IMG/VR virus record: IMGVR_UViG_3300031277_000003
Coordinates: 1-55,534 of that record
Length of the DNA: 55,534 nucleotides
Origin: a virus
Lineage: Duplodnaviria > Caudoviricetes
Strand: one strand, 5' to 3'
The notes beneath the pieces are model-generated. The model was not told the origin of the DNA. It searched no databases and saw nothing but the letters and a program-made list of their open reading frames with translations. Position numbers and translations under genes: made by a program. Shown here piece by piece: positions 14,156-40,966 of the stretch. Each line of letters opens with the position of its first letter. Position 1 is the first letter of the stretch.

Positions 14156-14569
14156 ATGCGTAATATGTCATTTATGCTAAAACCACAACAGATTATAGAT
14201 GAAACAGCATTCGCTACCCGTCGGCTTGGATGGTGGTTTCTTAAACGGCTTGATCTGGTCTGCGCGGTCAAAAAAGGCATGGGTCTTAAGAAGGGTGAAA
14301 AAGTAGTACGGTTAAAAACAATAATCATCCTCTCCACCTATCCGCAGGAATTAAATAAAATAACGGTTAGGGATGTAGAATTAGAGGGATTCCCAGGCAA
14401 ATCTCCGGAATGGTTCATAGATTTTTTTTGTACATCGCATAAACGATGCTTTCCAAACACGATAGTAAATGTAATCAATTTTACTTATTATAAAAATTGG
14501 GAAGAATTTGGAATTGAAGTAGACAAACAATTTAAAGCCTATCAAAACAGGAAAAAATTAAATGGGTAG
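14156..14569 (+). CDS. ASCH-domain protein
   Basis: MRNMSF...TRRLGW...LNKITVRDVELEGFP...VINF pattern. Confidence 0.75.
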   Translation: MRNMSFMLKPQQIIDETAFATRRLGWWFLKRLDLVCAVKKGMGLKKGEKVVRLKTIIILSTYPQELNKITVRDVELEGFPGKSPEWFIDFFCTSHKRCFPNTIVNVINFTYYKNWEEFGIEVDKQFKAYQNRKKLNG

Positions 14570-14999
14570 ATTATCACAGCAGCTCGGGAAAACCGGGGAA
14601 GAGGCCGCACGGTGGTATCTGCAAAACCTTGGATTCAAAGACGTGGAAAAATTAGCCACCCCTATGGTTAAAACTAAAAAAGGATGGGTTCACAGCAAAA
14701 AATCTTCGGTTGACTTCATCGCATGTATGCCGCAACCCGGGTGCATTTATCCCTATGCCGTCGCAAGGATCGAGGTTAAATATCACAACGGCGACACCCT
14801 ACCACATAGCGTAATGCAACCACATCAGTCGGAAAAACTGAGATCCTGGCACGAGAAAAAACTCCCTGCATTCGTTCTCTGGGTTCATACATGGATAGGA
14901 AACCAAATAGAATGCTATCTTATTGATTATCCAAACCCATACTTTAGACGCGGTAAAGCCCTGTCCGTGGAAACAGCAAAAAAAATATCATGGAAATGA
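14562..14999 (+). CDS. PD-(D/E)xK nuclease, RecU-like Holliday junction resolvase
   Basis: GKTGE...KSSVDF...IEVK...HQ motifs. Confidence 0.7.
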   Translation: MGRLSQQLGKTGEEAARWYLQNLGFKDVEKLATPMVKTKKGWVHSKKSSVDFIACMPQPGCIYPYAVARIEVKYHNGDTLPHSVMQPHQSEKLRSWHEKKLPAFVLWVHTWIGNQIECYLIDYPNPYFRRGKALSVETAKKISWK

Positions 15000-15043
15000 A
15001 AAAAAATAACGCATTTAAACAAATAATATATTAAATTACTATT

Positions 15044-15268
15044 ATGTCAGCAAAAAAAACACAGTTCCCTAAACCAAGCCACGGACTCTATATTGAAGAT
15101 TCTTTGTGGGAATTCTGTAGAGACAAATCAACAGAACGCGGATCATTCCATAATAAAACAGGATCATCAAGCGAATACATCAGACGTGCTTTCAAAGCAT
15201 GGATTTTAAAAGAAATGCCATACTTAAAAAAAGTTATGAAAGATGTTGACTGGGATGAAGCATATTAG
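15044..15268 (+). CDS. Ribbon-helix-helix-like DNA-binding protein
   Basis: HGLYIEDSLWE...SSSEYIRRA pattern. Confidence 0.55.
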   Translation: MSAKKTQFPKPSHGLYIEDSLWEFCRDKSTERGSFHNKTGSSSEYIRRAFKAWILKEMPYLKKVMKDVDWDEAY

Positions 15269-15274
15269 TATATT
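15246..15274 (+). promoter_or_regulatory. Pc-like promoter driving the cassette array
   Basis: TTGACT-N17-TATATT, ending 23 nt before the first GTT crossover. Confidence 0.7.
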
Positions 15275-15280
15275 AATATC

Positions 15281-15304
15281 GTTACACATAAACAACCGTT
15301 GTGT
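15281..15304 (+). other. attI-like primary recombination site
   Basis: GTTACACATAAACAACC-GTTGTGT. The GTT core at 15298 has no upstream attC hairpin and resembles attI1 (TAAAACAAAGTT). Confidence 0.55.
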
Positions 15305-15322
15305 GGAAATAAAGGAGCCTTT

Positions 15323-15430
15323 TATGTCAGTAAGCGCGCGTGTGAAAAGTGAGCCAGTCGGGTCACTGCATGCATACCTGAACGCCCTAGAGGGTTCGAG
15401 TCCCGTAGCAAGTGCGCGCGGAACACTATG
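15323..15430 (+). ncRNA. Cassette 1: tRNA-like structured RNA
   Basis: No convincing ORF. Closing stem GCGCGC and T-arm GGG-TTCGAGT-CCC. Confidence 0.5.
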
Positions 15431-15653
15431 GAAGGCTCCTTTACGTTCACACAACAGCCGCAGCCAGCAATATCCGGCGTTCAGGTCAACGGTCGGGGTC
15501 ATGTCCGAACGTTTAGCCCGTACCGGTGCGGTTGATACCAAGTCCGGAACTGCGCCGGATACTGCTGGCGACCCGGCGAAGCGCCAGTGCGGCCAACCGT
15601 TGTGCAACATTAACCGGTGAGTCTCTATTGGAGGCCGCCGCAAGAAAGGGAAT

Positions 15654-15947
15654 ATGAAATATCTAACAATTGGCAAGTATCGTGGCGATGATTTTCCAGG
15701 CTGCCCGTTCATCATATCAAAAGAACTAGATTCGAAAGAAGAAGCTATTCGCATTTTATCAACTCTTACTTCGTCGTTCTACGATTTGATGATAGTAGAA
15801 ATAACCGACATATTTTTCGAAGTCGCAGACGTTGTAGCGGCGGCTGGGCAAGTGGAATCACCGGTAAACGTCGCACAACAAACGCTACCCGCAGCGGGCG
15901 AAGCGCCCTTGGCCGATGGCACATTGGAAACGTCGGGTAGCGTCTGA
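15654..15947 (+). CDS. Cassette 2 hypothetical protein (reads into attC)
   Basis: RBS-ATG inside the cassette; C-terminus encoded by the attC. Confidence 0.7.
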   Translation: MKYLTIGKYRGDDFPGCPFIISKELDSKEEAIRILSTLTSSFYDLMIVEITDIFFEVADVVAAAGQVESPVNVAQQTLPAAGEAPLADGTLETSGSV

Positions 15948-16006
15948 CCGTTGTGTGCAATTGCCTGCGAGAGCGTTATTGTAGGCCGCGCTAAAAAGGG
16001 GATTTT

Positions 16007-16240
16007 ATGAATATACAATGTCCATTTTGCAAAGAAACCGATTTTGATCTTATTGGCCTGAAGAATCATTTGTTGTCTGGTCACTGCGAAGATTTCAATG
16101 ATGTGATGTCTGTTGAAGAAGAGCAGGCGGCGCGGCAGCATTTTAAGGAGTCGCAGGCCACAGACGCACAACAAACGCTACCCGCAGCGGGCGAAGCGCC
16201 CTTGGCCGATGGCACATTGGAAACGTCGGGTAGCGTCTGA
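16007..16240 (+). CDS. Cassette 3 zinc-finger protein (reads into attC)
   Basis: CPFC...DLIGLKNHL...C motif. Confidence 0.75.
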   Translation: MNIQCPFCKETDFDLIGLKNHLLSGHCEDFNDVMSVEEEQAARQHFKESQATDAQQTLPAAGEAPLADGTLETSGSV

Positions 16241-16297
16241 CCGTTATAAGGCAATAAATTATTCTTTTATATAAATAGTCAAAATGGAGCGGAACTT

Positions 16298-16534
16298 ATG
16301 AAATGGCAAGATGCGAGAATCGCTGAAAATGTAACGGATGAACTTTCCGACCTTAACTCTGTTCTCAATATTGTTTCTCAGATACCGAAAGGTGCTGCAA
16401 ACAGAATATTGCATTACTGTCATAATTATGTTAATAGAGACAGTGATGAATCACATCCAGTTGTTGAAAAGAAAGTGTCTGATGTAATGGAAGCTTTAAA
16501 GGGTTCCATTTTGAAGGATGATAAGGAGTCATAA
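16298..16534 (+). CDS. Cassette 4 hypothetical protein
   Basis: GGAG RBS; stop codon just before the attC. Confidence 0.75.
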   Translation: MKWQDARIAENVTDELSDLNSVLNIVSQIPKGAANRILHYCHNYVNRDSDESHPVVEKKVSDVMEALKGSILKDDKES

Positions 16535-16750
16535 TTTACATGCTTATAACAGCGGCAGCCAGCAATACCGGGCATTGGATAGAGGCGGTATCTAATAATG
16601 TTACGACATTGTAAAATGATACAATATCACGTCGGGCATCGACGCCCGGTACTGCTGGCGAACCGTCGAAGCGCCGATGCCGCTGACCGTTATCGGCAAT
16701 AAACCGGCGAGTCTTTGTTGGAGGCCGCCACAAAATACGGAGCGTTTTTT

Positions 16751-17029
16751 ATGATCCTTACTGAATTAATAGCCGAGAAACTTGATTGCGCACACGACTA
16801 TGTTAAATTATCGTCACTTTTTAAAGAGGATTTTGAAATAGATTCTCTTGATGAAATTGAACTTATTATGGCATGCGAGGATGAATACGATGTTGAAATA
16901 TCTGATGAAGAGGCGCAAGATATTAAGTCCGTTTCCGACGCCGCAAAGCTTCTTCTAGAAAAAGGCGTGGCGGCGGATAAATTAGGAGTCGCTGGTTTAC
17001 AGCCTATAACAGCGCCAGCCCAACATTGA
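16751..17029 (+). CDS. acpP: Cassette 5 acyl carrier protein
   Basis: EDFEIDSLDEIELIMACEDEYDVEISDEEA contains the DSL phosphopantetheine attachment motif. Confidence 0.88.
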   Translation: MILTELIAEKLDCAHDYVKLSSLFKEDFEIDSLDEIELIMACEDEYDVEISDEEAQDIKSVSDAAKLLLEKGVAADKLGVAGLQPITAPAQH

Positions 17030-17080
17030 AACGTCGGGCGGGTGGCGCGGGCCGTTGTGTGGAAATAAAGGAGCCTTTTT

Positions 17081-17210
17081 GAATTGTATTGCGCGACGAA
17101 GAGAACGTAGCCGATGTACGGCAAGGACGAAAAGTGTGGGCATGAGCGACATACGGCGGAGCCTGCAACGTCAAGCTGGCGGAAAATCATCGGTTCGCGC
17201 GACACTAGGG
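17081..17210 (+). ncRNA. Cassette 6: putative structured RNA
   Basis: No RBS-led ORF. Nested stems GCGCGA/TCGCGC and CCGATG/CATCGG. Same terminal inverted repeats as cassette 1. Confidence 0.45.
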
Positions 17211-17401
17211 AAGGCTCCTTTACGTTCACACAACAGCCGCAGCCAGCAATTGCACCGCTCCCCAAGGTGCCCGCAGATGCGTAATAGCATACACCTATCC
17301 AGCCCCTTGCAGCGAGGTGATGCGGTCGGGGGCGGTGCAACAGCTGGCGGGTGCGGCAAACCGTTATCGGCAATTATTGCCTCTTGAGAATTGGAGTTGA
17401 A

Positions 17402-17605
17402 ATGGTCGATAAAAACGGAGTTAAAATTAAGCCCGGATATGTTTTGTATAACCCTCACGATGAATACGGGTACTATACTGTAATTGCTGGTCCAGACGAT
17501 AAATTATTTCTTGGAGATTTAGATTCTCCATTAGAAAGATTTTCTCCGGAAGAGTTTTGGACCATTTCAAATAGAAATAAGGAATCGGCAACAACATGCT
17601 TATAA
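17402..17605 (+). CDS. Cassette 7 hypothetical protein (YopX-like DKNG motif)
   Basis: GGAG RBS; starts MVDKNGVKIKPG. Confidence 0.7.
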   Translation: MVDKNGVKIKPGYVLYNPHDEYGYYTVIAGPDDKLFLGDLDSPLERFSPEEFWTISNRNKESATTCL

Positions 17606-17782
17606 CAGCCGCAGCCAGCAATATGTGGGGCATCATGCTACGGAAGAAAGTGTGTGTGATTGAACGGTGTTGCGCAACATTTATTAAGTCCATGCCCCAC
17701 ATACTGCTGGCGACCCGTCGAAGCGCCGGTGCGGCCAACCGTTATGCAAAATTTCGTTACAAGAGATCGATTGGAGTTTTTT

Positions 17783-18034
17783 ATGCTTGATAAAGATATC
17801 GACACTGTTGACACAATGGTGCATTGGAGTATTACATCAACAGCGGCAAACGAGGCGTGGCAACGCATAAAAAAAGAACTGTCGGAACTCGCTCAACTAT
17901 CGCATAACACAGGCAGCCCAAAATTGCCGACTAGCTGTATTGATTGTCCGTTAAGTTTGATTTGTGGTCAACCGGTAGTTATAAATGATGAGTCGTGCCA
18001 GTATTGTCGTCGGCAACTTCGGGCGGGTGCCTGA
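17783..18034 (+). CDS. Cassette 8 protein; Cys-rich C-terminal half encoded within attC
   Basis: GGAG RBS; the frame runs through nearly all of attC 17902-18045. Confidence 0.6.
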   Translation: MLDKDIDTVDTMVHWSITSTAANEAWQRIKKELSELAQLSHNTGSPKLPTSCIDCPLSLICGQPVVINDESCQYCRRQLRAGA

Positions 18035-18080
18035 CGACGTTGTGTTACATTAAGTTTTCTTGAGTATTGGAGGTTTCAAG

Positions 18081-18428
18081 TTGGCTGTTCATTATTTAAA
18101 AACGTGGCCTCAGTATTTTGCCGCCATAATCAGCGGTGAAAAAACGTTCGAAATTCGTAAAAACGATAGAGAGTTTAAGGTTGGCGACAGCCTTTGCCTT
18201 CAAGAATTTATTCCAAGCCACGAACAGTTTACAGGCCGGGTTTGGGTTGTAATAGTAACATACATTTTCAATGGCGGCTCGTTAGGCGTCTATTCTTCAT
18301 ACTGCGTACTTGGTATCCGCCAACTTTCAACAGCAGAATTAGGAATCAAACTGAACGTCACACAACAGCGGCTAAATGCTACGCCTTCGGCTCCGGCACA
18401 AGGCACATGCGAAACGCACGTCACTTAG
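18081..18428 (+). CDS. Cassette 9 DUF3850/ASCH-domain protein
   Basis: HYLKTWPQYF...GEKTFEIRKNDREFKVGD...TGR; GGAGG RBS with TTG start. Confidence 0.85.
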   Translation: MAVHYLKTWPQYFAAIISGEKTFEIRKNDREFKVGDSLCLQEFIPSHEQFTGRVWVVIVTYIFNGGSLGVYSSYCVLGIRQLSTAELGIKLNVTQQRLNATPSAPAQGTCETHVT

Positions 18429-18495
18429 CCGCAGATGTTAAATGAAATACCGCCCTCTTGAGATTTGGGGGCGCGGCTAAAACCGGGAGGTTATC

Positions 18496-18690
18496 TTGTT
18501 AATAAACATTATTGTTCAGGTTGACACATCTACAGATCCAGTGTACAACAATAAATCTTTTGATGATGTGCGCAAGTATTTATTTGATGAAGCAAAACGA
18601 ATATATGAAGATGGGATTGAATTAATAGACGTTGTTGTCGCCGCGCAGGAGAAAGAGGAATCGGGCGGTACTTCACTTAACATCGGGTAA
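18496..18690 (+). CDS. Cassette 10 hypothetical protein
   Basis: GGAGG RBS with TTG start. Confidence 0.65.
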   Translation: MLINIIVQVDTSTDPVYNNKSFDDVRKYLFDEAKRIYEDGIELIDVVVAAQEKEESGGTSLNIG

Positions 18691-18797
18691 ATGTCGCTTA
18701 CGCTTAATGCTACGCACTACACTTACCCGAGGGCCGTTGTGTGGAAATAAAATTGATTTTTATATAAATAGTTTTTGCTCACTACATTGGAGGTTCT

Positions 18798-18941
18798 ATG
18801 AAAGTTAAAATGATATTTAAAAGGCTCGATTCTCGTCGAGAAGATTTTGATAGAATGATGAAAAGCAACATTGGAGAGCTTAAGGTGCGTGCTAGAATGG
18901 AAACAGGCGGTTATCACAAGCCCGGTAGTCTAAAGAAATAA
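18798..18941 (+). CDS. Cassette 11 small basic protein, 47 aa (not in ORF track)
   Basis: GGAGG RBS; MKVKMIFKRLDSRR...YHKPGSLKK. Confidence 0.65.
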   Translation: MKVKMIFKRLDSRREDFDRMMKSNIGELKVRARMETGGYHKPGSLKK

Positions 18942-19161
18942 CACCGTTCGCAAAATAATATTATGGTAATCAATTTTACATTCACACAACAAACGTTAAA
19001 TTCAATACCGGCATACGGTGCGGGCAATTGTCAATGTCTCATGGCAGGGGTGGAGCCCTCCGAAGTACATTATGCCGGTACTAAACTTAACCTAATCCGT
19101 TGTACAAAATGTCTGGCCGGAGAAAATTGGAGTTCGGCTGGCTTAACATTGGAGGCTTCGA

Positions 19162-19434
19162 GTGAGTGATATCAAAGTTATTTTCCATTGCAAAAAGCAC
19201 GGAATATTAAAGTGCTCCGATGTGATTGCGTTAAATGGCGGATACATTTGTGGGTTATGTTTTAATTCACAGCCAGCCGAAGTACAGGGGGACGGCCAGG
19301 CACATCGTACAACACTGCCAGCCCAAAATATCGACTTAAAGACAGGTGTTATTAATATTAACAATTTACATGGTTCCGATCAGTGTAACGGAACTGAGGT
19401 ACCGGCGCAACTTCTGTTATCGCCAATACGTTAA
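19162..19434 (+). CDS. Cassette 12 zinc-binding protein (reads through attC)
   Basis: GGAGG RBS; CKKHG...ICGLC. Confidence 0.65.
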   Translation: MSDIKVIFHCKKHGILKCSDVIALNGGYICGLCFNSQPAEVQGDGQAHRTTLPAQNIDLKTGVININNLHGSDQCNGTEVPAQLLLSPIR

Positions 19435-19493
19435 ATGAAATTTTTGGCGAGTCTTTATAATAGGCCGCCGCTAACCATAAACGAAAGGGTATC

Positions 19494-19751
19494 ATGTCTA
19501 GGCCAGATTGTTATAATTGTAAAGGGCGCGGTTCTATTCCAGGTGATTGTCATTCAACCTGTTCACAGCGACAAGCCCATGTTGTTGGTGATACTACTGG
19601 TATTCGTGGGGGTTGGTTTAATTGGCCGTGGAATTTTGATCCTACATGGCTAGTATCGTGCGATAGTTTTGTACCATTAAGTGGCAAAGAAGCGGCGGAA
19701 GAACAAGGGGAGTCACCGTTTACTTCTGCTAACAGCGGCAGCACAAAATAG
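19494..19751 (+). CDS. Cassette 13 Cys/Trp-rich phage protein
   Basis: CYNC...PGDCHSTC...GWFNWPWNFDPTWL. Confidence 0.75.
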   Translation: MSRPDCYNCKGRGSIPGDCHSTCSQRQAHVVGDTTGIRGGWFNWPWNFDPTWLVSCDSFVPLSGKEAAEEQGESPFTSANSGSTK

Positions 19752-19830
19752 CGGAGCTACTTCGTGCGCCCCGGCTCTGGCCGGTGCCGCGATCCGTTGG
19801 CGGTAATTGCCGCCTTAGAAACTAATTAAT

Positions 19831-20067
19831 ATGAGCAGCGCATATAAAATAGAGGATACTGGAAAGGAGTTTATTGTAAAGCGGCACGGAGGATGGTCTA
19901 GGGCTATTATCCAGTATACTATGCATAATATTGATAGGTCTTTTTACATGGCAAAGGTTTGTTGCGCTGCTCTAAATGCTGCGGAATCGGCGACAACTAA
20001 CCGCCAACAAACGCTACCCGCAGCGGGCGAAGCGGGCTTGGCTTCGCACATTGGAAACGTCGGGTAG
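19831..20067 (+). CDS. Cassette 14 hypothetical protein (reads into attC)
   Basis: Single ORF filling the cassette. Confidence 0.65.
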   Translation: MSSAYKIEDTGKEFIVKRHGGWSRAIIQYTMHNIDRSFYMAKVCCAALNAAESATTNRQQTLPAAGEAGLASHIGNVG

Positions 20068-20136
20068 CGTATGACCGTTGGTAAAAATTTGCCGGGCTTG
20101 AGATAATAAAGCGCGGCTCTTTTAAGGAGGTATCAG

Positions 20137-20424
20137 TTGCTTACAGTTCGCTTTCCTAATGGCCAAGCCGTTCAGTATAACACTGCAAATTATGTTAAGA
20201 GCTCCACCGAATATTCAGACATATACGAGAAGAAAGATGGCGTATGGGTGGCTCAAGTTCCTAATACTTGCATTATTGAAGCTGTCAATGCCTGTCGTGT
20301 GTACCATGCCCCGGAAAGCGAACTGACGGCCAGTATTGCTAATCAAATAGAAGTTTTAGGTCGGAAGTTACTCCGCGCTTATCGTGATGAGGCCCGGAAA
20401 ACTTCTACCAACAAGCGGCTATAA
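20137..20424 (+). CDS. Cassette 15 hypothetical protein
   Basis: AAGGAGG RBS with TTG start. Confidence 0.75.
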   Translation: MLTVRFPNGQAVQYNTANYVKSSTEYSDIYEKKDGVWVAQVPNTCIIEAVNACRVYHAPESELTASIANQIEVLGRKLLRAYRDEARKTSTNKRL

Positions 20425-20508
20425 GGCTCGCGGACTCGTCCCAAATTGCAAGGCGACTTCGCATAGCCGCTGACCGTTACACGCAATAAAAATTTAAGGA
20501 GGTTTCCA

Positions 20509-20769
20509 TTGGATAAAATTTTGGCTTTTTTCGGATTGTGCAGAATCGAGAAGGCGAAGGGTGTTTCACTTTGCATGCATTTGCATTACGTCAGGCAGGT
20601 TCAATATGGTGTTGAAAAAGATTTCGGCGTTAAGCCTAATCAAGAGGCTATTGAGATAACAACATCGGCGTGGTTACAAAATTTCTATCAAGCCATGAAA
20701 GAGTCTGAAAACTCGAACGGCGTCAATATTACAAACGCGCCAAAATTTTCTGATTGCTATGAAAATTAA
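20509..20769 (+). CDS. Cassette 16 hypothetical protein
   Basis: AAGGAGG RBS with TTG start. Confidence 0.7.
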   Translation: MDKILAFFGLCRIEKAKGVSLCMHLHYVRQVQYGVEKDFGVKPNQEAIEITTSAWLQNFYQAMKESENSNGVNITNAPKFSDCYEN

Positions 20770-20975
20770 ATTTTTACAGTCGTATAACAGCCGCAGCCAG
20801 CAATACCGGGCATTGGATAGAGGCGGTATCTAATAATGTTACGACATTGTGAAATGATACAATATCACGTCGGGCATCAGTGCCCGGTATTGCTGGCGAC
20901 CCGGCCAGGGGCCAGTGCGTGAGGACGGTGTACAATGCCTGCCTTTTTAGAATATAGGCGGGCGGAAAGGAGCTT

Positions 20976-21359
20976 ATGAAATATCAAGAAGCTATTAAAA
21001 CGGTACAAGCGGCTTTGCGAAGAGACAAAGAGTTGTATTATTCTTTTCAGGCTAATATCGCCATGCAATTTGTTGACGAAAATCGCCGTCAAGGAAGTCG
21101 CGATTCATATAAAAAGGTTCACGGAGTTGCGAACGAAGCAGCAAAGAATTTTCTTAACTTGCTTATTAAACCAGTCCGCCCGCAGAAAAGCGGAAGCGGC
21201 AGTCACTATACACAACAAAGCAAGGCAGGCTCCGAAGACTGCGCCCAAATTGCCGCTCGTATGCGTGAACTTGCTTCTGAACCGTGCAAGGCCGGATTTG
21301 TTCCAATATCAACAGAAACCTTAAACGAATGGGCGCGGCAACTTCTGCCTTGCTCATGA
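20976..21359 (+). CDS. Cassette 17 protein (reads through the final attC)
   Basis: AAGGAG RBS; YYSFQANIAMQFVDE...ANEAAKNFLNLL motif. Confidence 0.75.
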   Translation: MKYQEAIKTVQAALRRDKELYYSFQANIAMQFVDENRRQGSRDSYKKVHGVANEAAKNFLNLLIKPVRPQKSGSGSHYTQQSKAGSEDCAQIAARMRELASEPCKAGFVPISTETLNEWARQLLPCS

Positions 21360-21406
21360 AGTTATCCCATACCTATTTCAACCATATGCTTCATAGCTGA
21401 TATATA

Positions 21407-21983
21407 TTAAAAAGATCCCATTCTTTTAATCCTGCGCCATCTATCATAGCGTTTAGTTATCACCGCAGAGCATTCCCCATTATACTCACATCCAGCTCCT
21501 ATGCTCATATTACCTGTAATGGTAAAAGATCCCGCCGCGGAACTACCCGTATAATCTCCAGTATACCCGGCAAAGGCGCTACAAGCCTCGCAGATTACGG
21601 TAGTATGGACCAGAGTGTTAGAGTCTACCGTAAGCCCCTCTGTGATCGTCCATGAGGACAGATTGCTTCCCCAGGTAGTGTCTATGGTGTAAGAAGGCCA
21701 TTCATGCTCTATGGCTGTTACTGTAGAATCCTCCGTAACATCTATAAATAACCCCGTTTTTTGGAGTAAAAACCCCTCTATTAATACCACCGTCATATAC
21801 GCAGAATACAGTATCCCCAGCATTAAAAGAGGCAGCGTTATGAGTTGCAAGCGTCATACACGCAGTATAGTCAGTTGACGGGCCTACGGCGTTTACTTTT
21901 GTAGCTGTACCATCGGCTCTTATATAAAAATTTGCTGACATACACAATGTCGTTAAAAGAAAAATAAACAGATTTGGTTTCAT
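21407..21983 (-). pseudogene. Split gene for a signal-peptide protein with a beta-helix-like N-terminus
   Basis: ORF 21983-21702 has a signal peptide and FYIRADG...FNAGDTV. A Thr/Ser/Gly-rich continuation lies in another frame down to 21407. Confidence 0.45.
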
Positions 21984-21996
21984 TTAAAAATACTCC

Positions 21997-22431
21997 TCAC
22001 TTTTTTAAAAATCGTTGCAGGTTTTCTATGAGTGCAACCTGTTCTCGGTGGCCGTCCTCATGAATAAATTGAGCCCATTGTCGATACCTGCAAATATCCG
22101 CATGGTAAGAATAAATCCCTTTATAATTAAGATATACACCGATTGCCTTGAAACCTGAATATGCCAACCTGCAGACCACTTCCCACACGGGAGGCTGGTG
22201 CCCGATGATGGTAATGTCGATCGCCTCTCCGGCCGGATGTTCCGGGCTGTCGTGCTTCCCGGTATTACACCCATTGTGCAGCAATTGCACGGCGGCGTTG
22301 TCAGGCAGTCCAAGTGCGAATTGATCCATACAATGAACCGCCTCAAATCGCATTCCATCAATCTCTGCTCCGGCCCTTTTAAAGTCCTCAATAGTGAGGA
22401 CTGAAAGAGTTAAAAAATCTTCCGGTTTCAT
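21997..22431 (-). CDS. Endolysin, peptidase M15-like
   Basis: HPAGEAIDI (H-x6-D) and YHAD zinc ligands; lies at the end of the late operon. Confidence 0.75.
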   Translation of the reverse strand: MKPEDFLTLSVLTIEDFKRAGAEIDGMRFEAVHCMDQFALGLPDNAAVQLLHNGCNTGKHDSPEHPAGEAIDITIIGHQPPVWEVVCRLAYSGFKAIGVYLNYKGIYSYHADICRYRQWAQFIHEDGHREQVALIENLQRFLKK

Positions 22432-22775
22432 TTTTTCATCGCATCATTAAAAGAATTTAACAAGTTTTTGTCGATTTTCTTTTCCACCGATTCTTTGATG
22501 TTGTCGGCCTTACACCCTTTTAGAAACCGCTGTGCTCCATTGATTACAATGTCAACAATTTTTGAAATGATATCATTTTCTAATTTATCCATACTTTTTT
22601 TCCCAAGCCTTGTATTACCTATGGCCGATACTAGTCGGCCAAATTTTTCACAAGCAGCCCCGGTAATATCAAGAGCTTTTTGCTTCGGGAATTTATGAGC
22701 GATTATTAAACATATAATTGAAATCGCTCCCGGAATCCCGACGTTGATTAAAATTGTATGTAGCATTTCGTTCAT
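22428..22775 (-). CDS. Membrane protein, possible holin
   Basis: N-terminal transmembrane helix; adjacent to the endolysin. Confidence 0.5.
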   Translation of the reverse strand: MNEMLHTILINVGIPGAISIICLIIAHKFPKQKALDITGAACEKFGRLVSAIGNTRLGKKSMDKLENDIISKIVDIVINGAQRFLKGCKADNIKESVEKKIDKNLLNSFNDAMKK

Positions 22776-23446
22776 ACCTTTACCTCCTTAATTTTCCGAG
22801 AAATCTGCCATTGCCGCGGAGTCATCGGTTTTACCCGATGCTTGAAATATCCAATATGTTCATATACGCGCTGTGCCAATTCAGAGCAGATTAATTCCTC
22901 CGGCGAACCGGTTATATGTAAAGCAGACAATACTTTCCAGAGTCCGGCAACGTCGGCGTAATCGTACCGCCTACCGTGATGGTAGATGTCGAATAGATAA
23001 TTGTTGCCATCCTTTATTTGCTGTAGTGTCAGCTTAGCTCGACCGATCCAGCAAACGTGCGGATCTCTGATGTTATCGGTAACATATTCCCGGGGATCAG
23101 TGAGCTTCACCCCGGAAATAATATGCGTCTTCGTCCACTTCCCGCGCATGTCGGCATTGTGGTGATATTCCTCTTCAGTGATTATTTTTTTACCATCGGC
23201 CGAAATGTAGATATCCTTTTTCTTGGTAGCGTCCATTTCAATAATCCAATACCGTCCGTCTTTGCCAATAGCCGTTATCGCGGTATGAGTGGAGAGCATC
23301 GCGCGCTTTTTGTACAGCCCGATACCGCCCCAGGTGTTGCGGTGTATTATTCTCGGCAGAACGCCGAAAGAAGTGGTCCCGATAATATCAAGAGGCCTTA
23401 TGCGATGAACAAGGTATTTCTGGAAATCAATCATACGAGGATTCAT
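22772..23446 (-). CDS. Permuted papain-like (YiiX/YebB-type NlpC/P60) enzyme
   Basis: His (STHTAI) precedes YDY and ICSEL, the permuted catalytic order. Confidence 0.75.
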   Translation of the reverse strand: MNPRMIDFQKYLVHRIRPLDIIGTTSFGVLPRIIHRNTWGGIGLYKKRAMLSTHTAITAIGKDGRYWIIEMDATKKKDIYISADGKKIITEEEYHHNADMRGKWTKTHIISGVKLTDPREYVTDNIRDPHVCWIGRAKLTLQQIKDGNNYLFDIYHHGRRYDYADVAGLWKVLSALHITGSPEELICSELAQRVYEHIGYFKHRVKPMTPRQWQISRKIKEVKV

Positions 23447-23700
23447 TTTACCGCCTTTGGATGAATGATCACCTGCTCATGTTTCTGCCCTACTATTATT
23501 TTCTCAATCTGTTTGAGAGTGAGAAAACCGACATAGGGAGGCGATATCAGATCGGTGTAAATTGTAACCCCATACCGTACCTCTTTCGGTTCCGCCCCTA
23601 CCCGGTCGCCCGGAATAAAAACACAGAGCACGGTTGAAATGAAGAGAAGCATTAAAAGGTATCTGTATAACCTTGTTTTATCCGCGTAGGTTGTTTTCAT
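23443..23700 (-). CDS. Membrane or secreted hypothetical protein
   Basis: N-terminal hydrophobic helix. Confidence 0.6.
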   Translation of the reverse strand: MKTTYADKTRLYRYLLMLLFISTVLCVFIPGDRVGAEPKEVRYGVTIYTDLISPPYVGFLTLKQIEKIIVGQKHEQVIIHPKAVK

Positions 23701-23709
23701 TTTACCGCC

Positions 23710-24003
23710 TCATTTAGACCTTCTTGATATATATTTTAATTCAGCTTTTATTTCTTTAATATCACCTTTTATATCATATACGGCATTCATTATCTCCTTG
23801 GTTGATACATTCTGTTCTCTGTTATCAACCTCACATTGCGTGGTCCTACGTTCAATATCCTTCATTGACTGGACCTGTTGCCCATAAATGAATATAAGTC
23901 CGCCAATGGTGAGCAAAAGCTGTATCCATCCAAGATGTCTGTTCAGTGCCGCCATCATACGATTCTTTCTATGCTCATTGTTTTGAGCTTTGCGGCATTT
24001 CAC
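23710..24003 (-). CDS. Transmembrane plus coiled-coil protein (holin/XhlA-like)
   Basis: TM helix followed by DIKGDIKEIKAEL coil; lysis-region position. Confidence 0.55.
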   Translation of the reverse strand: MKCRKAQNNEHRKNRMMAALNRHLGWIQLLLTIGGLIFIYGQQVQSMKDIERRTTQCEVDNREQNVSTKEIMNAVYDIKGDIKEIKAELKYISRRSK

Positions 24004-24073
24004 TCCCGGTTGCCGCCAACCGTTCCGGGAGCACTAATTAAAACCTATACTCCAACTCTATCGTAATTATTCT

Positions 24074-26389
24074 TTAATAAAACCAATCTACTTGGCATGG
24101 ATAAATACCTCCAGAAGCATCTTCGCCCATATATCCATACGGAATACTTCCATATACACGTAAAACAGTATTCGTACTATCCTTTATCCATCCCATTCCA
24201 TCAGGTATACTATTTATTGGTATCGGGTGTAATGGATAGAAACTTAAAGAAGATACTGGAGCAACTAAATATCCAGCTGGAAAATGGATCGTTGTAATCG
24301 TTGACGCTGTTATTGCTCCTGTCAACTGTGGTAGTTGAATTGAAATTCTCTTCAATGATTTTCTAACAAACGCCTGTGCTCTTGCCCGATACGTTGCGCC
24401 ATCAAACAAACTGCAATATGGTGTAGATGTCAACAAAACACTATCAAGTGCAGCTATTTCAGTTGTATCAATTGAAGATAATACCGATTTTATCTCCTTG
24501 TCACCACCTATCCATGCCATCCTATTTGCCGTTGTATAACTACATTGTAAATCACCACCAAATACATTAGGAGCCGTTCCGTTCTGGTAAATGCCGTAAT
24601 CAATGCCGCTGGCTTCATTAAGATACAGCATGTACGACGTTCCGCCGACTGTTCCGTCAAGATCGACATAAATTTGTATTCCGTAAACATCTCCGGTAAT
24701 TTCGTTAGCAGCTTCTTGATCAATACTAAAAAATCCAACAATGGCATCTCCCCATATTTTTCCACCATTTAAATCAAGAAACGAAAGATTATTTATTGCT
24801 GTCCTGCTATTAGAAACGTCACCAATATTACCATCAGTAACCCTAAGTAAATTATAGGTACTTCTAACATACCCGATTGTTCCAGCATTTTGGTTTAAAT
24901 CAATTAAATTATAATTACCATAAAAATGATCATTAACATCACTGGCCCCCGCCGTTTTAACCAAATTCTGATATATCCCATAAAACGTGCTTGTAAACGA
25001 TAGTGCAGCATCATCAATATTTATATACCGATTCGGGTCTGCGGTGGTATTAATCCCAATCCGTCCGACATTATCAAGCTCCTGACTGTTCCAGTCGAAT
25101 GATGCTGAAGCTGTCCCACTTAAAGAAGCCAACAAATCTGAAACCAGTAATGGCCGTACTCTCCCATTATTTTTTATCAATATAGTATCTGCTGAAACCG
25201 CTGGTACTGCATCACTCAATAATACAATACCATTTAAACTTATTGTATCTGCCCACAAAGAAGTATGATTAGATTCCTCGTTTCCAAGTTCTATCATACC
25301 ACCGGTCGTTGATGATCCTTTTCCACCTAATATCCTTATTACTGAATTTTCACCAGAATTTCTATATGCACGTATAAATACCGTATTTGAATCATCATAA
25401 CCGATAATCCCATGAGTTATTAACAAATCATATTTAATATCAGCAAGATCATCAGATGGGTCATATAAATGAATTATTATGCTATCACCAGACAAATTGA
25501 CATTCCCTTTAATACCAGCCTTTAATGTCACTGATCCAGTGCTGTCCTCATCACCGTTACCATTTAACTGTAAATATGACCCGTGCTCTGAACTCCACGA
25601 TGCTCCTCCAGCAATATATGTTGTCCGTGGCCCAGAGCCTAAATTGGATATACCGATACCGGTATGAGTTGAATCACACCAAATAGCGCCAGGAAAAATA
25701 GTGGCATCGCCGTAAAATTTTACATAAGTGGTGCATAACTTCCCTACGGAGTTTGCGTAAATAAATTTATTATCTGAATATAAATCTTGAACTGCCAAAC
25801 TTCCCTTTATTAAGCATGGGTAGGTATCGCTTCCGAAGTGAAACGTCTTATCATTAATAATGGTTTGCCCCGTTGAATCATTAATGTAAATAATATCATT
25901 TATTCCCATTAATGATCTATCGTAGCTACTGAAACACGCTTCAAGACCCATATTGGAATTCGCTATTGAATCTTTACCTGATTTTTGTGTTCTGTTAAAT
26001 GATCCAATACGAAATTGACTGAAATAATTTCCGGCATAGAAATATCGTGATTTACGTTGAACAATACAGAAATGTGGCCCTGTCTGATCTTCGGCAACAT
26101 CCATATCATAATTAGATAATGTATCAATGAGAAACATTTTTGCGGGATAACCAGACCCCGAGCCATTGGAATAGTATTGTAACCATAAATTATAATAATC
26201 ACTGAAACTGCCATCAACTATCAAATTACCATCAGAATCAGTATAGGTGAAATTATTGTTAGAACCTGATTCTGTTATTTTAACCGCCTCCGTCTCAATG
26301 CTATCAGGCAATTCTTGCACAACTGCATAACTTATTGAAAAACAATAAATCAATAACAGTAATGAAATGTTTATCTTTTTAATATGCAT
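24074..26389 (-). CDS. Tail fibre / receptor-binding protein
   Basis: 771 aa, G/S/T/N-rich, GRIGINTT fibre motif, distal tail position. Confidence 0.65.
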   Translation of the reverse strand: MHIKKINISLLLLIYCFSISYAVVQELPDSIETEAVKITESGSNNNFTYTDSDGNLIVDGSFSDYYNLWLQYYSNGSGSGYPAKMFLIDTLSNYDMDVAEDQTGPHFCIVQRKSRYFYAGNYFSQFRIGSFNRTQKSGKDSIANSNMGLEACFSSYDRSLMGINDIIYINDSTGQTIINDKTFHFGSDTYPCLIKGSLAVQDLYSDNKFIYANSVGKLCTTYVKFYGDATIFPGAIWCDSTHTGIGISNLGSGPRTTYIAGGASWSSEHGSYLQLNGNGDEDSTGSVTLKAGIKGNVNLSGDSIIIHLYDPSDDLADIKYDLLITHGIIGYDDSNTVFIRAYRNSGENSVIRILGGKGSSTTGGMIELGNEESNHTSLWADTISLNGIVLLSDAVPAVSADTILIKNNGRVRPLLVSDLLASLSGTASASFDWNSQELDNVGRIGINTTADPNRYINIDDAALSFTSTFYGIYQNLVKTAGASDVNDHFYGNYNLIDLNQNAGTIGYVRSTYNLLRVTDGNIGDVSNSRTAINNLSFLDLNGGKIWGDAIVGFFSIDQEAANEITGDVYGIQIYVDLDGTVGGTSYMLYLNEASGIDYGIYQNGTAPNVFGGDLQCSYTTANRMAWIGGDKEIKSVLSSIDTTEIAALDSVLLTSTPYCSLFDGATYRARAQAFVRKSLKRISIQLPQLTGAITASTITTIHFPAGYLVAPVSSLSFYPLHPIPINSIPDGMGWIKDSTNTVLRVYGSIPYGYMGEDASGGIYPCQVDWFY

Positions 26390-26889
26390 CTGGCTAACCC
26401 TTCTCCCGATCTTGATTCAAAAACCCATCCCAATAATCTCAAAGGATCAACCCTTGAAATACTATCTGATTGCGCCCTGCCGTTATCGGTATAACCAGTA
26501 TCGGCAGATTTCGACATTCTAACATAATTTTCACGAGTTGCACCATTTGAATTAAAATAAACATCCGCAGGACCGGATACAATCACTTTACACAACCCTC
26601 CGCTTTCAACATCTTCATAAATTACCCCTGATATATTATAGTCGTTTTCAACGGCTATTACAAATGTGAGATCGGTGGTTAATGATGTTTTTACAAGCAA
26701 CCCCTTATTTAATTTATATCCCATTCCATTTATTCCGGTTATATAAAAACCGCCTTCTGCCGTTATCGGGTAAGTTGTTGCAACCGATACAGTTCCCGAA
26801 GAGCTTCCTTGTCGATTTATATACGCTATCAAATCATCGAAGCATCTATCAACTGTAGGTAATCCGGAAGATGATTTTTTAAGATACAT
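26371..26889 (-). CDS. Tail-associated structural protein
   Basis: Position; beta-rich C-terminal domain. Confidence 0.55.
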   Translation of the reverse strand: MYLKKSSSGLPTVDRCFDDLIAYINRQGSSSGTVSVATTYPITAEGGFYITGINGMGYKLNKGLLVKTSLTTDLTFVIAVENDYNISGVIYEDVESGGLCKVIVSGPADVYFNSNGATRENYVRMSKSADTGYTDNGRAQSDSISRVDPLRLLGWVFESRSGEGLARCILKR

Positions 26890-26893
26890 TTTA

Positions 26894-27340
26894 TTAATTC
26901 CTATTCATTAATTGCCATGTTATACCATTGTAAATAAACGAGGCAACCATGTAATCATTGAAATCAACGGTCCCGCTAAAATCTTTAGTTGATACTTGTG
27001 CGTAACCTGATTGTGTCCCGGTAAGCCTAAGCAAAGTAAGCGTATATGTATCATCGGTCAGTAAATGAATCTTGTTTCCAATTGCTCTATCCGTGGTTGA
27101 AATAAGATGCACCTCTAAATTAGCACCAATAACAAATGAATCGTATTTAATCAAATCTCCGGTACTAATATCAAGTGCATAACTCGGAGCAGTACCTATT
27201 ATTGGTAATGACTCACCTGCGGCGATACCCCCGCCCCGATGCAATACTGTAAGATTTTCCCCAACCTCATTATAATAAGTCGTTGGTATAGCCTCTACAC
27301 CGAAATCTGTTTTAGGCGCTACCCATACTTCACCTGCCAT
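26894..27340 (-). CDS. Tail protein
   Basis: WVAPKTDF...YNEVGENL N-terminal motif common in tail proteins. Confidence 0.6.
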   Translation of the reverse strand: MAGEVWVAPKTDFGVEAIPTTYYNEVGENLTVLHRGGGIAAGESLPIIGTAPSYALDISTGDLIKYDSFVIGANLEVHLISTTDRAIGNKIHLLTDDTYTLTLLRLTGTQSGYAQVSTKDFSGTVDFNDYMVASFIYNGITWQLMNRN

Positions 27341-27342
27341 AT

Positions 27343-32673: not shown

Positions 32674-32674
32674 A

Positions 32675-33148: not shown

Positions 33149-33158
33149 AATTTTCTCC

Positions 33159-35018: not shown

Positions 35019-35080
35019 AAATTAATTCTTGCTCGATATTGCTATCGATATTTTTGAAAAAAGGAATTATTACAGATAAT

Positions 35081-36318: not shown

Positions 36319-36335
36319 AATATTAATACCAGTTG

Positions 36336-36620: not shown

Positions 36621-36729
36621 TATAATACCTTACTATCATTTTATTTTTTTTAATCGGAGTTAACGTCAATATCACCGATTGCAAACTTCGGTTTCCGCTA
36701 CATTAGAGAATGACATTTTTTACTCCTTA

Positions 36730-40932: not shown

Positions 40933-40966
40933 TTAGTATCCTTTCATTTTTGATCTCATTTTAATT

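Follow-up and report, generated by a model that had tools for sequence, protein, structure and literature searches.

An integrase-less array of 17 integron-type cassettes in a complete siphovirus-type phage genome

How does a phage that carries no recombinase come to hold a long array of gene cassettes, and which enzyme could move them? The question is raised by the virus record IMGVR_UViG_3300031277_000003, whose 55,534 nucleotides were analysed in full (the window). The record is a complete siphovirus-type phage of 55.5 kb with a CheckV completeness of 100%, and the recombinase profiles PF00589, TIGR02249, PF00239 and PF01797 matched nowhere in it. The statement of the preliminary description that no tyrosine recombinase is visible was thus upheld, and no serine or Y1 recombinase was found in the record either. 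The bare finding of an integrase-less phage attC cluster is already published: Qi et al. 2023 (PMC9892861) screened 10,705 NCBI isolate genomes and used the term CALIN for two or more predicted sites.

Architecture of the array and its junctions

The array lies at the 3' end of the rightward early operon of the phage and spans 15298-21367, where 17 cassettes stand in the same orientation and each is closed by an AAC...GTT hairpin. The attC-type sites number 17 and measure 57-158 nt, exactly as first claimed; their R'' AAC triplets run from 15453 to 21214 and their R' GTT triplets from 15599 to 21361. The AAC triplet is invariant (17/17), and GTT is intact in 16 of the 17 sites, the exception being GGT in site 16. 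All 17 sites fold into imperfect hairpins, and the proposed check of bottom-strand folding found that strand more stable than the top in 16. Nearly identical attC families occur within the array (sites 2/3/14 and sites 4/16). The features are given below with the matches of R1, a covariance model built from sites of the array, whose E-values are rough owing to a shortened calibration.

15246..15274, +: candidate Pc, promoter-like TTGACT-17-TATATT facing the array; 10/12 consensus positions, a consensus match only
15286..15305, +: attI-like simple site ACATAAAC-AACC-G/TTGTGTG; crossover between 15298 and 15299
15299..15599, +: cassette 1, without a credible ORF, closed by a long stem; attC 15449-15605 (157 nt), R1 E 0.0014; paralogue of cassette 6
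15600..15950, +: cassette 2, ORF 15654-15947 (97 aa, extends into attC); attC 15873-15956 (84 nt), R1 77 bits
15951..16243, +: cassette 3, ORF 16007-16240 (77 aa); attC 16166-16249 (84 nt), nearly identical to attC 2
16244..16689, +: cassette 4, ORF 16298-16534 (78 aa); attC 16544-16695 (152 nt), R1 match
16690..17054, +: cassette 5, ORF 16751-17029 (92 aa), PP-binding / acyl carrier protein; attC 17004-17060 (57 nt)
17055..17363, +: cassette 6, without a credible ORF, closed by a long stem; attC 17228-17369 (142 nt), R1 match
17364..17741, +: cassette 7, ORF 17402-17605 (67 aa); attC 17600-17747 (148 nt), R1 match
17742..18039, +: cassette 8, ORF 17783-18034 (83 aa, spans attC); attC 17902-18045 (144 nt), R1 match
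18040..18437, +: cassette 9, ORF 18081-18428 (115 aa), DUF3850/ASCH; attC 18360-18443 (84 nt), R1 match
18438..18736, +: cassette 10, ORF 18496-18690 (64 aa); attC 18675-18742 (68 nt), R1 match
18737..19099, +: cassette 11, ORF 18798-18941 (47 aa); attC 18984-19105 (122 nt), R1 match
19100..19430, +: cassette 12, ORF 19162-19434 (90 aa, spans attC); attC 19307-19436 (130 nt), R1 match
19431..19796, +: cassette 13, ORF 19494-19751 (85 aa); attC 19727-19802 (76 nt), R1 match
19797..20077, +: cassette 14, ORF 19831-20067 (78 aa); attC 20002-20083 (82 nt), family of attC 2 and 3
20078..20476, +: cassette 15, ORF 20137-20424 (95 aa); attC 20406-20482 (77 nt), R1 match
20477..20927, +: cassette 16, ORF 20509-20769 (86 aa); attC 20782-20933 (152 nt), nearly identical to attC 4, missed by R1
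20928..21361, +: cassette 17, ORF 20976-21359 (127 aa, spans attC), right end of the array; attC 21210-21367 (158 nt), missed by R1

One short unit per hairpin had been described, which is correct for 15 cassettes with a single ORF each but not for cassettes 1 and 6. The cargo had been taken for phage accessory genes, a weak claim with only 2 of the 15 cassette ORFs matching a PHROG: cassette 5 (phrog_5934, acyl carrier protein; PF00550 at 32 bits, cut-off 20.8) and cassette 9 (phrog_986, ASCH/DUF3850 protein; PF12961 at 99.7 bits). The ORF of cassette 3 gave a weak zinc-finger match under the cut-off. Several elements are common to the array of another phage, G002: the 5' UTR of cassette 7 matches a G002 cassette with 97% identity over 37 nt, the attC ends of cassette 8 recur there, and the attC family AAC-AAAGCAAGGCAG of cassette 17 is also present.

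The six bases past the R'' triplet agree with the start box of their own cassette at 79 of 102 positions, versus a chance-level 46/102 for the downstream box of the same site; permutation gave a mean of 45.3 (sd 4.6) and reached 79 in 0/100,000 trials. By site, the upstream box fitted better in 15 cases, tied in 2 and was never surpassed, the weakest agreement being that of cassette 13 (3/6). In nine other arrays, 47 adjacent site pairs gave 214/282 for the upstream and 129/282 for the downstream box, and 214 was reached in 0/20,000 permutations. The complementarity and the G/TT footprint reported at first were therefore both borne out. The footprint supports the insertion of circular cassettes at G/TT, carried out by a tyrosine recombinase of integron type; as a former circle opened and joined at this point, each cassette has an R'' box that pairs with its own start box.

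Cassette 1 has no preceding hairpin. The left boundary consists of an inverted YATAAC box, 4-5 nt and then GTTG, a layout that recurs at the array start of the unrelated phages G002 (ACATAAC-GTCTA-GTTG) and G301 (CGTATAAC-AAGTA-GTTG), and it looks like a simple attI-type site, in agreement with the original assignment. Both array ends are exact recombination points, with the simple site on the left and an intact attC R' on the right. The proposed Pc is the best plus-strand sigma-70-like match in 14500-22000, but promoter-like sites in the array region are not enriched (18 versus 14.1 in shuffles, sd 3.4). In the one sequencing run holding the array, read depth across it was flat (about 30 versus 28-29 in the flanks), and contigs ended at repeated attCs.

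Distribution of the site class and its neighbouring recombinase

In the window, R1 gave 15 matches at E <= 0.0014, all on the plus strand within the array and 8 of them outside the training set; the best match outside the array had E 0.035. Over 520 kb of other loci it gave 47 matches, every one in viral loci, and detected arrays in seven further viral contigs, bringing the contigs with this class to eight; local GC of the array-bearing contigs ranged from 0.29 to 0.56 (five loci measured). The array of G301 has 40-45% GC on a backbone of about 25% GC, and its cassettes therefore originated elsewhere. Among the related arrays, those of G002 and G299 include DNA methyltransferase cassettes.

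Across 43 canonical intI loci (about 270 kb) R1 gave no match; the integrons there bear attC sites of other types, whose spacer is a symmetric 2x2. The unpaired features of the window's sites lie on the L'-R' arm, opposite to those of canonical attC sites. None of the models trained on canonical attC sites recognises them, and an Rfam search of the array found no family at gathering thresholds or at E <= 10. The window's sites are a distinct recombination-site class.

In the order of G003, which includes a MAG titled Chitinispirillaceae (Fibrobacterota), 31 of 81 genomes gave R1 matches as well. At six loci in five genomes (G036:C22, G036:C85, G042:C2, G045:C15, G048:C157 and G052:C56, three of them examined base by base), a co-oriented tyrosine recombinase precedes the matches by 0.8-3.2 kb. 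This enzyme is IntI/XerA-like, lacks the IntI-specific segment of about 45 residues and scores 177 bits on TIGR02249 (cut-off 265). G036:C22 and G036:C85 have a common recombinase 3' end, a spacer of about 300 nt and attI (...GGAAGAA/GTTGTYTGCAAT), followed by different first cassettes. Flanking genes of the bacterial platforms are cellular (CstA, an HZS_alpha-domain protein). Phage G301 encodes a 30%-identical recombinase (E 2e-28) whose gene ends directly at the attI-like site of its array. Genomes with a homologue of at least 65% identity were R1-positive in 13 of 19 cases, versus 18 of 62 others; any homologue at E <= 1e-25 was present in just 17 of the 31 R1-positive genomes, which are incomplete MAGs. 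Some "bacterial" arrays may lie in prophages or mis-binned phage contigs: G071:C332, an R1-positive contig with at least 10 sites, also has a portal-like match. The left boundary of the window's array is unlike the bacterial attI sequences seen, which argues against attI and array having been taken over from such a platform as a single piece.

A proposed recombinase in trans and the alternatives

The array is probably an integrase-less cassette array (CALIN) of a distinct integron class, serviced by a recombinase in trans. A cassette comprises one short gene or none and an imperfect hairpin site, and would have started as a circle, opened by a tyrosine recombinase and joined at G/TT. The full platform would run from recombinase gene through attI to co-oriented cassettes on chromosomal contigs of the order of the Chitinispirillaceae MAG, and of this the phage has the simple attI-like site and the cassettes alone. 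Because the phage has no recombinase, cassette entry, exit and movement would depend on an enzyme that the host or a co-resident element provides in trans while infection proceeds. The early operon may drive expression, or else the promoter-like site at 15246 may. Adjacency alone points to the IntI/XerA-like recombinase as the cognate enzyme of the site class; against this, it could be an ordinary element integrase beside the arrays by chance. The cassettes were presumably inserted into the phage genome itself, through the attI-like site; the phage host would come from the order of the same MAG. No CRISPR-type match of the phage to genomes of this order was found, and portal and TerL comparisons gave no consistent host signal.

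The enzyme had been proposed to be the host IntI. That a classical IntI with the IntI-specific domain recognises both the attC and the attI-like sites, and assembles and rearranges the phage's array, appears unlikely, although the triplets, the hairpins and the G/TT footprint are IntI substrate features and the bottom strand folds better, as in canonical sites. Bona fide IntI genes occur above the curated cut-off in 53 of 296 genomes of the phylum having the same cassette type, IntI1 recombined phage-borne attC sites in the assays described by Qi 2023 (PMC9892861), and IntIs are described as accepting varied attC sites (PMC2095811). However, R1 found the class in none of the 43 canonical intI loci, it adjoins a recombinase devoid of the IntI-specific segment, and its L'-R' arm features mirror the layout that favours bottom-strand binding by IntI; the enzyme is probably not a classical one. 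Active acquisition and shuffling in the phage, also proposed at first, found no support: no backbone relatives of the phage were found, no alternative joints were seen in the contigs of one run, from which rare variants drop out, and site 16 has lost its GTT.

Somewhat less likely still is passive cargo, a stretch of host array acquired on one occasion, whether through illegitimate or homologous recombination or through one multi-cassette insertion, since fixed and serviced by no recombinase. The recombinase-free genome, the mutated R' of site 16 and the lack of variant joints in the run's contigs agree with it, as do the Vibrio phages with captured chromosomal-integron pieces described by Qi 2023 (PMC9892861). 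Yet the array ends at exact recombination points rather than at arbitrary places within cassettes, its left boundary type is repeated in two unrelated phages, and the class occurs in at least eight viral contigs, with a local GC of 0.29 to 0.56 at the five loci measured, which points to a process that happens repeatedly; entry of several cassettes in one insertion by the recombinase would be the same mechanism as servicing in trans. Very improbable is a reading unrelated to integrons, in which the small phage genes are separated by transcription terminators, REP-like elements or repeats of another kind. On the minus strand several sites do resemble terminator stems by score, and neither Rfam nor the canonical attC models recognise them, but this reading is already contradicted by the junction footprint in the window and other arrays. 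It also leaves unexplained why R'' pairs with the upstream box of its own gene and not the adjacent box, why AAC and GTT are invariant, and how one platform holds different first cassettes.

Relation to known systems

The phage CALINs of PMC9892861 likewise hold co-oriented attC-type sites and cassettes without an integrase, include five MTases comparable to the methyltransferase cassettes of G002 and G299, and led to the same proposal of phages as cassette carriers. Here, in contrast, 17 cassettes bear a statistically proven junction footprint, and the class is linked to a non-canonical recombinase; in TJE1, one of the phages validated there, neither R1 nor a separate scanner found any site of this class. 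What goes beyond the published phage CALINs is thus a distinct site class, present also in other phages and beside a non-standard bacterial integrase.

Sedentary chromosomal integrons and CALINs, as described by Cury et al. 2016 (PMC4889954), resemble the array in their length, in their mostly single-gene cassettes of unassigned function, and in having few near-identical attC families with AAC/GTT most conserved. The window's array is in a virus, and its sites have spacers of 1-2 nt by 4-6 nt where the bacterial attC are given about 5-6 nt in each arm; the bulge is on the other arm, and the outer helix reaches well past the 7-nt R box. The classical platform (intI, Pc, attI and cassettes, e.g. 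class 1) shares the simple attI-type site with its G/TT crossover and a promoter-like site upstream of promoterless cassettes. It differs in that the window's phage lacks intI and in that classical intI diverges from attI, whereas the bacterial and G301 recombinase genes, of sub-cut-off TIGR02249 score in bacteria, are co-oriented and end at attI.

The DUF1874 motif, proposed as an unusual attC site by Weinberg et al. 2017 (PMC5737381), similarly forms a structured element in consecutive intergenic regions without a 5' integrase; the window's array differs in being blank in Rfam, of which the copy searched may not include the motif. IntI-catalysed insertion outside att sites (bioRxiv 10.1101/2022.09.11.507474) would offer a route for a cassette or multi-cassette circle into a phage at a short GTT-containing site, but the phage boundary here is a conserved inverted-box site in three phages and not an arbitrary GTT.

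Junction footprint and phage setting of the array

The preliminary description had reported an integron-like array of 17 sites and cassettes, and this observation was confirmed by the box pairs, the hairpins and the footprint left at the junctions. Seventeen pairs of an R'' box (…AAC) and an R' box (GTT…) lie within positions 15449-21367 of the window, delimiting sites of 57-158 nt, and cassette lengths and spacing range from 281 to 451 bp. The AAC triplet is invariant at 17 of the 17 sites and the GTT triplet is intact at 16. In folds predicted with DNA parameters, AAC and GTT close an imperfect hairpin at every site, and the bottom strand is more stable than the top strand in 16 of 17, in agreement with the bottom-strand folding anticipated for attC sites.

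The junction pattern claimed earlier, in which each R'' box pairs with the GTT box that opens its own cassette, was also borne out. Over the six bases past the triplet, R'' matched the upstream box of its own cassette at 79 of 102 positions, a score reached by 0 of 100,000 permutations, compared with 46 of 102 for its own downstream box, which is the chance level (45.3, sd 4.6). Matching of this kind is what circular cassettes leave behind when they are opened and joined at G/TT (the slash marks the crossover), and the sites are chimeric as in an integron cassette array. Extending the test to 47 site pairs in nine arrays (four viral loci and five bacterial MAG loci) gave 214/282 versus 129/282, and none of 20,000 permutations reached 214. 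At site 16 the R' triplet (window 20927-20929) reads GGT, one base away from GTT, although the surrounding ...GGACGTTGTACAAT sequence is typical; judged from the sequence, this should fuse cassettes 16 and 17 into one uncuttable unit.

The left boundary of the array reads ACATAAAC-AACC-G/TTGTGTG in the window, ACATAAC-GTCTA-GTTG in the viral contig G002 and CGTATAAC-AAGTA-GTTG in the viral contig G301. A search for the inverted-box pattern in 220 kb returned two matches only, in the window and G002, each exactly at the array start. The attI-like site proposed earlier is thereby supported as a layout, the window form recurring at the array starts of G002 and G301; in a putative attI, the inverted boxes would bind the integrase on double-stranded DNA and the crossover would fall at G/TT. 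The bacterial attI sequences read below differ from this boundary upstream of GTT.

The 55,534-base record is rated 100% complete by CheckV, and its PHROG matches to a large terminase, portal, major head protein, tape measure protein and DnaB-like helicase identify a tailed, siphovirus-type phage. The array occupies the 3' end of the rightward early/replication operon, directly past a Holliday-junction-resolvase-like gene, and converges with the leftward structural genes. The GC content of the cassette bodies (0.416) matches that of the backbone (0.417). Profiles PF00589, TIGR02249, PF00239 and PF01797 gave 0 matches over the whole record, and tblastn of two array-linked recombinases against the window returned nothing (best E 0.29), so the absence of a tyrosine recombinase stated in the preliminary description stands.

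Assembly was examined in the contigs of one public run, X1, which is listed as a salt marsh metagenome and is possibly the source sample. X1 contains 98% of the array's sampled words at an even depth of about 30 over the array and 28-29 in the flanks, and the array is therefore not a foreign insert of other abundance. The X1 contigs are broken at the repeated attCs. Any present cassette movement in the window phage would be set against a mutated site 16, and the X1 contigs show no alternative joints or variants of the array; since contigs drop rare variants, this lack says nothing on activity. Other X1 contigs match the window only up to or from 21210, 21251, 18274, 18622 and 19128 and then diverge. 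Position 21210 coincides with the start of attC 17, and the divergence there suggests that the same attC occurs in another context in that community.

No relatives of the backbone were found in viral contigs with the 145-aa flanking protein and DnaB as queries. The packaging module (TerL and portal; window 52071-53843 and 45743-47065) is mosaic in its sequence affinities. TerL is 69% identical to that of the Pseudomonas siphoviruses TC7, phi2 and Psp6, and the best cultured-phage matches of the portal reach about 37% identity (Oscillospiraceae phages), with 30-36% to elements in Fibrobacterota. TerL and portal gave no consistent host signal, and CRISPR-type comparison of 20 kb of backbone (21400-41399 of 55.5 kb) with 81 genomes yielded only chance-level matches of 24-42 nt.

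Site geometry and spread over viruses

Passages of Nivina et al. (2016, PMC5027507) describe canonical attC hairpins of about 57-141 nt, with a spacer of about 5-6 nt per arm and extrahelical bases near L'', i.e. on the AAC arm of the top strand. The window sites share the triplets that close an imperfect hairpin. In contrast to the canonical spacer of 5-6 nt on each arm, the phage class has an R box followed by a first internal loop of 1x5 or 2x5-6, then 6 bp and then either a side hairpin or a bulge of 1-3 nt, in many cases GGG or GAG. Its unpaired bases lie mostly on the L'-R' arm and not on the canonical L'' side: in predicted folds, this arm carries more of them at 10 window sites, the other arm at 2, and 5 are equal, and the corresponding numbers in the other phage contigs are 21, 1 and 4. 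Cassette polarity is canonical despite this mirrored asymmetry, with a hairpin-less simple site at the start and a hairpin at the end. In nine bacterial attCs beside canonical intI, the first loop is mostly symmetric, 2x2 nt. The array has no counterpart among the Rfam families, whether gathering thresholds or E <= 10 are applied.

Exact motifs supplied by three of the window's attC families were searched in viral contigs and led to seven further ones, G001, G002, G299, G300, G301, G302 and G303.

Viral contigs carrying the site class
G001: 32 kb; viral contig with the site class
G002: 73 kb, 96% complete; at least 17 cassettes with the same junction footprint
G300: 467 kb IMG/VR record, listed as provirus, 98% complete; at least 3 sites of the class (locus L111)
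G301: 128 kb; viral contig with the site class and a tyrosine recombinase

None of these viral records contains IntI, and a tyrosine recombinase was found in G301 only; PF00589 had no match in all 467 kb of G300. The window TerL has no match in G001 or G002, and beyond attC pieces and the ends of cassettes, whole-genome comparison yields just a few weak protein matches, which makes the window phage, G001 and G002 unrelated. GC content spans 0.29-0.56 across five measured viral loci. In G301 it rises from a backbone of about 0.25 to 0.40-0.45 exactly at the array start (locus L118, G301:C1:118566-128185: from 0.20-0.29 to 0.37-0.45). This jump sits at the end of the recombinase gene and the contig ends inside the array; the contig may be a chimeric assembly joined at that point. 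An RHH-like gene as a common upstream neighbor of the arrays was rejected, as no significant similarity links the ORFs upstream of the arrays in the window, G002 and G299; there was only a weak match, at E 1e-4, to an ORF that lies within a G002 cassette.

A covariance model, R1, was trained on 22 short sites of four phages (88 positions, 12 pairs), and its E-values are rough. Applied to the window with filters off, it recovered 15 sites at E <= 0.0014, all on the plus strand inside the array and 8 of them untrained, missing sites 16 and 17; its best match elsewhere in the window was at E 0.035. In 520 kb of other loci it gave 47 matches (E <= 0.1), all viral. R1 found nothing in 43 Fibrobacterota loci around canonical intI, nothing at a degenerate lone cassette in the bacterial locus L035 and nothing in TJE1, a validated phage of Qi et al. 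(2023), in which a site scanner likewise showed no regular array.

Bacterial platforms and the array-linked recombinase

An exact-motif scan of 185,579 species genomes returned 30 matches, one of which is real, a lone cassette in G003, a MAG titled Chitinispirillaceae bacterium with the NCBI family lineage Chitinispirillales, Fibrobacterota. The other 29 were single, without attC-like context and mostly coding, and were read as chance. Scanning metagenomes gave two contigs, equal in length to G001 and G002. The lone cassette (L035:2400-3730) has the start box GTTATAGGC and the R'' box GCCTATAAC, paired at 9/9 positions; its attC is cut short, its flanks are short tandem repeats of the GGAATCGG / CGATACCG type, and a second copy of the 45 nt upstream of it lies about 300 nt further back. 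When the array was compared by BLAST with 296 genomes of the phylum, the matches fell almost entirely on acyl-carrier-protein genes belonging to the bacteria, and none was of attC type. IntI above the curated cut-off occurs in 53 of these 296 genomes, adjoining arrays of other attC types. In nineteen further intI neighborhoods the contigs stop shortly after intI, which leaves few attCs in them. Nine bona fide bacterial attC sites were collected, and one family dominates their alignment, making it too family-specific for a covariance model.

With R1 at E <= 0.001, 31 of the 81 genomes in G003's order gave matches, which often form co-oriented runs along a single contig. At six loci in five genomes, a tyrosine recombinase gene in the same orientation lies upstream of the first match, at a distance of 0.8-3.2 kb. 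Three of these platforms were read base by base.

Bacterial platforms read base by base (a slash marks the joint)
G042:C2: 515-aa recombinase ORF, 65 nt, ...GTGTTTGAAGGA/GTTGTTTGCAAT, then cassettes
G036:C22 and G036:C85: common recombinase 3' end, spacer of about 300 nt and ...GGAAGAA/GTTGTYTGCAAT

The two G036 platforms begin with different cassettes: one encodes an Rce1-like protease, and the other is longer, holds several genes and reads as possibly radical-SAM-like; one platform with different first cassettes is integron behavior. The flanking genes of the bacterial platforms are cellular (CstA and an HZS_alpha-domain protein). Contig G071:C332 carries the array together with a portal-like match, and some R1-positive "bacterial" contigs may be prophage. 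On the minus strand of G036:C22 (L142:3300-3800), the recombinase gene is truncated at its 5' end and preceded by two copies of a repeat of about 70 nt (…GGAAATATCGAATATCGAATA…), as if disrupted by an insertion. The order of G003 holds two integron types side by side, one in which a canonical IntI gene is oriented divergently from its arrays, whose attCs are uniform at 127-138 nt, and the other with a non-canonical recombinase co-oriented with R1-class arrays.

The array-linked recombinase consists of about 225 N-terminal residues without family match, followed by Phage_int_SAM_4 and Phage_integrase domains, with 135 bits on PF00589 and 42.7 bits on PF13495 (N-terminal SAM-like, IntI type). 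On TIGR02249 (cut-off 265) the G042:C2 enzyme scores 176.9 bits in two stretches, below the IntI threshold, and the G301 enzyme 114 bits; two G003 tyrosine recombinases score 209.6 and 163.6 bits, the latter (G003:C121) being a homologue of the array-linked family. On the XerA model, the array-linked recombinase reaches 187 bits against a cut-off of 220. Alignment showed that the IntI-specific segment of about 45 residues, present in both bona fide IntIs of the phylum, is absent from all three array-linked recombinases, which keep the R, HxLRH and Y catalytic residues. At E <= 1e-25, 30 of the order's 81 genomes have a homologue, and R1 matches are found in 13 of the 19 genomes with a homologue at least 65% identical versus 18 of the 62 others. 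The recombinase of phage G301 has 30% identity to the bacterial enzyme (E 2e-28) and is likewise without the IntI-specific segment, and its gene stops directly at the G301 attI-like site; in viral contigs, a search for its relatives gave only the query itself and one 26%-identical protein without an adjoining array.

Integrons are bacterial gene-capture devices, and IntegronFinder takes two or more co-oriented attC sites close together as the threshold for a CALIN, an attC cluster without integrase. Phage attC clusters were reportedly first described in 2023; they came from the genomes of isolates and were for the most part small. Passages of Qi et al. (2023, PMC9892861), in which the CALIN rule is two or more sites within 3 kb, give 3 complete integrons, 1 In0 and 17 CALINs with at least 2 predicted sites among 10,705 isolate phage genomes, and IntI1 recombined five of the six phage attC sites tested; the phage CALIN as such is therefore already known. 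The window array, with at least two close co-oriented attC-type sites and no integron integrase, is a CALIN of a distinct integron class. What sets it apart from a plain phage CALIN is a separate class of sites, which has a mirrored geometry, is spread over unrelated phages and is linked to an integrase that lacks the IntI-specific domain. Neither comparable long phage arrays nor this recombinase-attC pairing were found in the literature on phage attC sites, integrons and CALINs and on Fibrobacterota integrons.

The preliminary description had the phage using the host IntI to acquire and shuffle its accessory genes; the observation behind it stands, and the interpretation is supported in part. 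The enzyme for the array is likely a non-canonical recombinase supplied in trans, as the bacterial platforms and the G301 gene suggest. The recombinase would have inserted cassettes into a simple site in the phage genome. Capture of a chromosomal piece would be the alternative; insertion is favored over it by a boundary unlike bacterial attI and by array ends that are both exact recombination points. We tentatively join these elements, with less than even confidence, into a separate integron lineage in which an IntI-like, co-oriented enzyme without the IntI-specific domain would act on mirror-image hairpins, perhaps on the other strand, and cassettes would travel mainly via phages. In this reading, integrase-less arrays would be carried by many unrelated phages (backbone or locus GC of about 0.25-0.56) and serviced in trans, forming a shared, exchangeable store of small accessory genes.

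The array is long and cleanly built in a complete uncultivated phage, and its site class recurs in one bacterial order and in no fewer than eight viral contigs. If the adjoining recombinase is cognate, neither the IntI-specific domain nor the canonical extrahelical placement is needed for integron-type cassette recombination. The definition would then become wider than that of the detection tools, which call the integrase by the IntI-specific domain, and a concrete enzyme and site pair would be at hand to probe how strand choice is set. The arrays suggest phage cassette stores open to host enzymes, a little-explored route of gene exchange between phages and bacteria.

Contents and ends of the cassettes

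Fifteen cassettes contain one ORF with a ribosome-binding site each, and cassettes 1 and 6 lack a credible ORF. Two of the 15 ORFs pass the Pfam cut-off (PP-binding and DUF3850/ASCH) and the same two match PHROGs; one more has a weak zinc-finger match below the cut-off, and the other 12 match no Pfam or PHROG family. The earlier assignment of the cargo to phage accessory genes is supported by the two PHROG matches and, with so few ORFs in a family, only weakly. As 13 of the 15 match no family, the array is also a pool of small phage-borne genes of unknown function. DNA methyltransferase cassettes occur in the related arrays of G002 (PF00145) and G299 (MT-A70).

Four ORF-less cassettes in three phages are alike only at their ends.

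ORF-less cassettes
Window 15299-15452: ORF-less cassette
Window 17055-17231: ORF-less cassette
L004:110-316: ORF-less cassette
L003 ~7331-7188, minus strand: ORF-less cassette

Their start (GTT box and AAAGGAGCC) pairs with the stretch before R'' (GGCTCCTTT...CACACAAC), and the inner stem exists in three versions related by compensatory changes (GGAGCC/GGCTCC, GAAGG/CCTTC and GTGAGC/GCTCAC). A single long hairpin of -51 to -79 kcal/mol (RNA parameters) is predicted for each cassette, and all four are followed by the same attC type and preceded by differing attCs. No tRNA, tmRNA or Rfam match was found in them (tRNA and tmRNA searched in cassette 1). On these predicted folds, the cassettes may give a structured RNA, or the stem may just be the outer helix of the attC, greatly lengthened.

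Many cassette ORFs lack a stop codon ahead of the attC, and their reading frame enters or crosses the site, giving the unrelated proteins of cassettes 2, 3 and 14 common site-encoded C-termini. Likewise, attC-encoded C-termini occur in G002 and G301. At the 5' ends of cassettes, a motif past the GTT box (...CAAT/AAAT) is followed by a short stem-loop with CTTGAGA or GAGTCT and a GGAG ribosome-binding site.

Cassette-end features in the window
15873-15947, 16166-16240, 20002-20067: ORFs reading into or through attC
17902-18034, 19307-19434, 21210-21359: also ORFs reading into or through attC
15599-15645, 16689-16735, 17363-17400, 19430-19475: examples of the cassette-start motif

The cassette 5' ends of the window and G002 have 37 nt in common at 97% identity in front of different genes.
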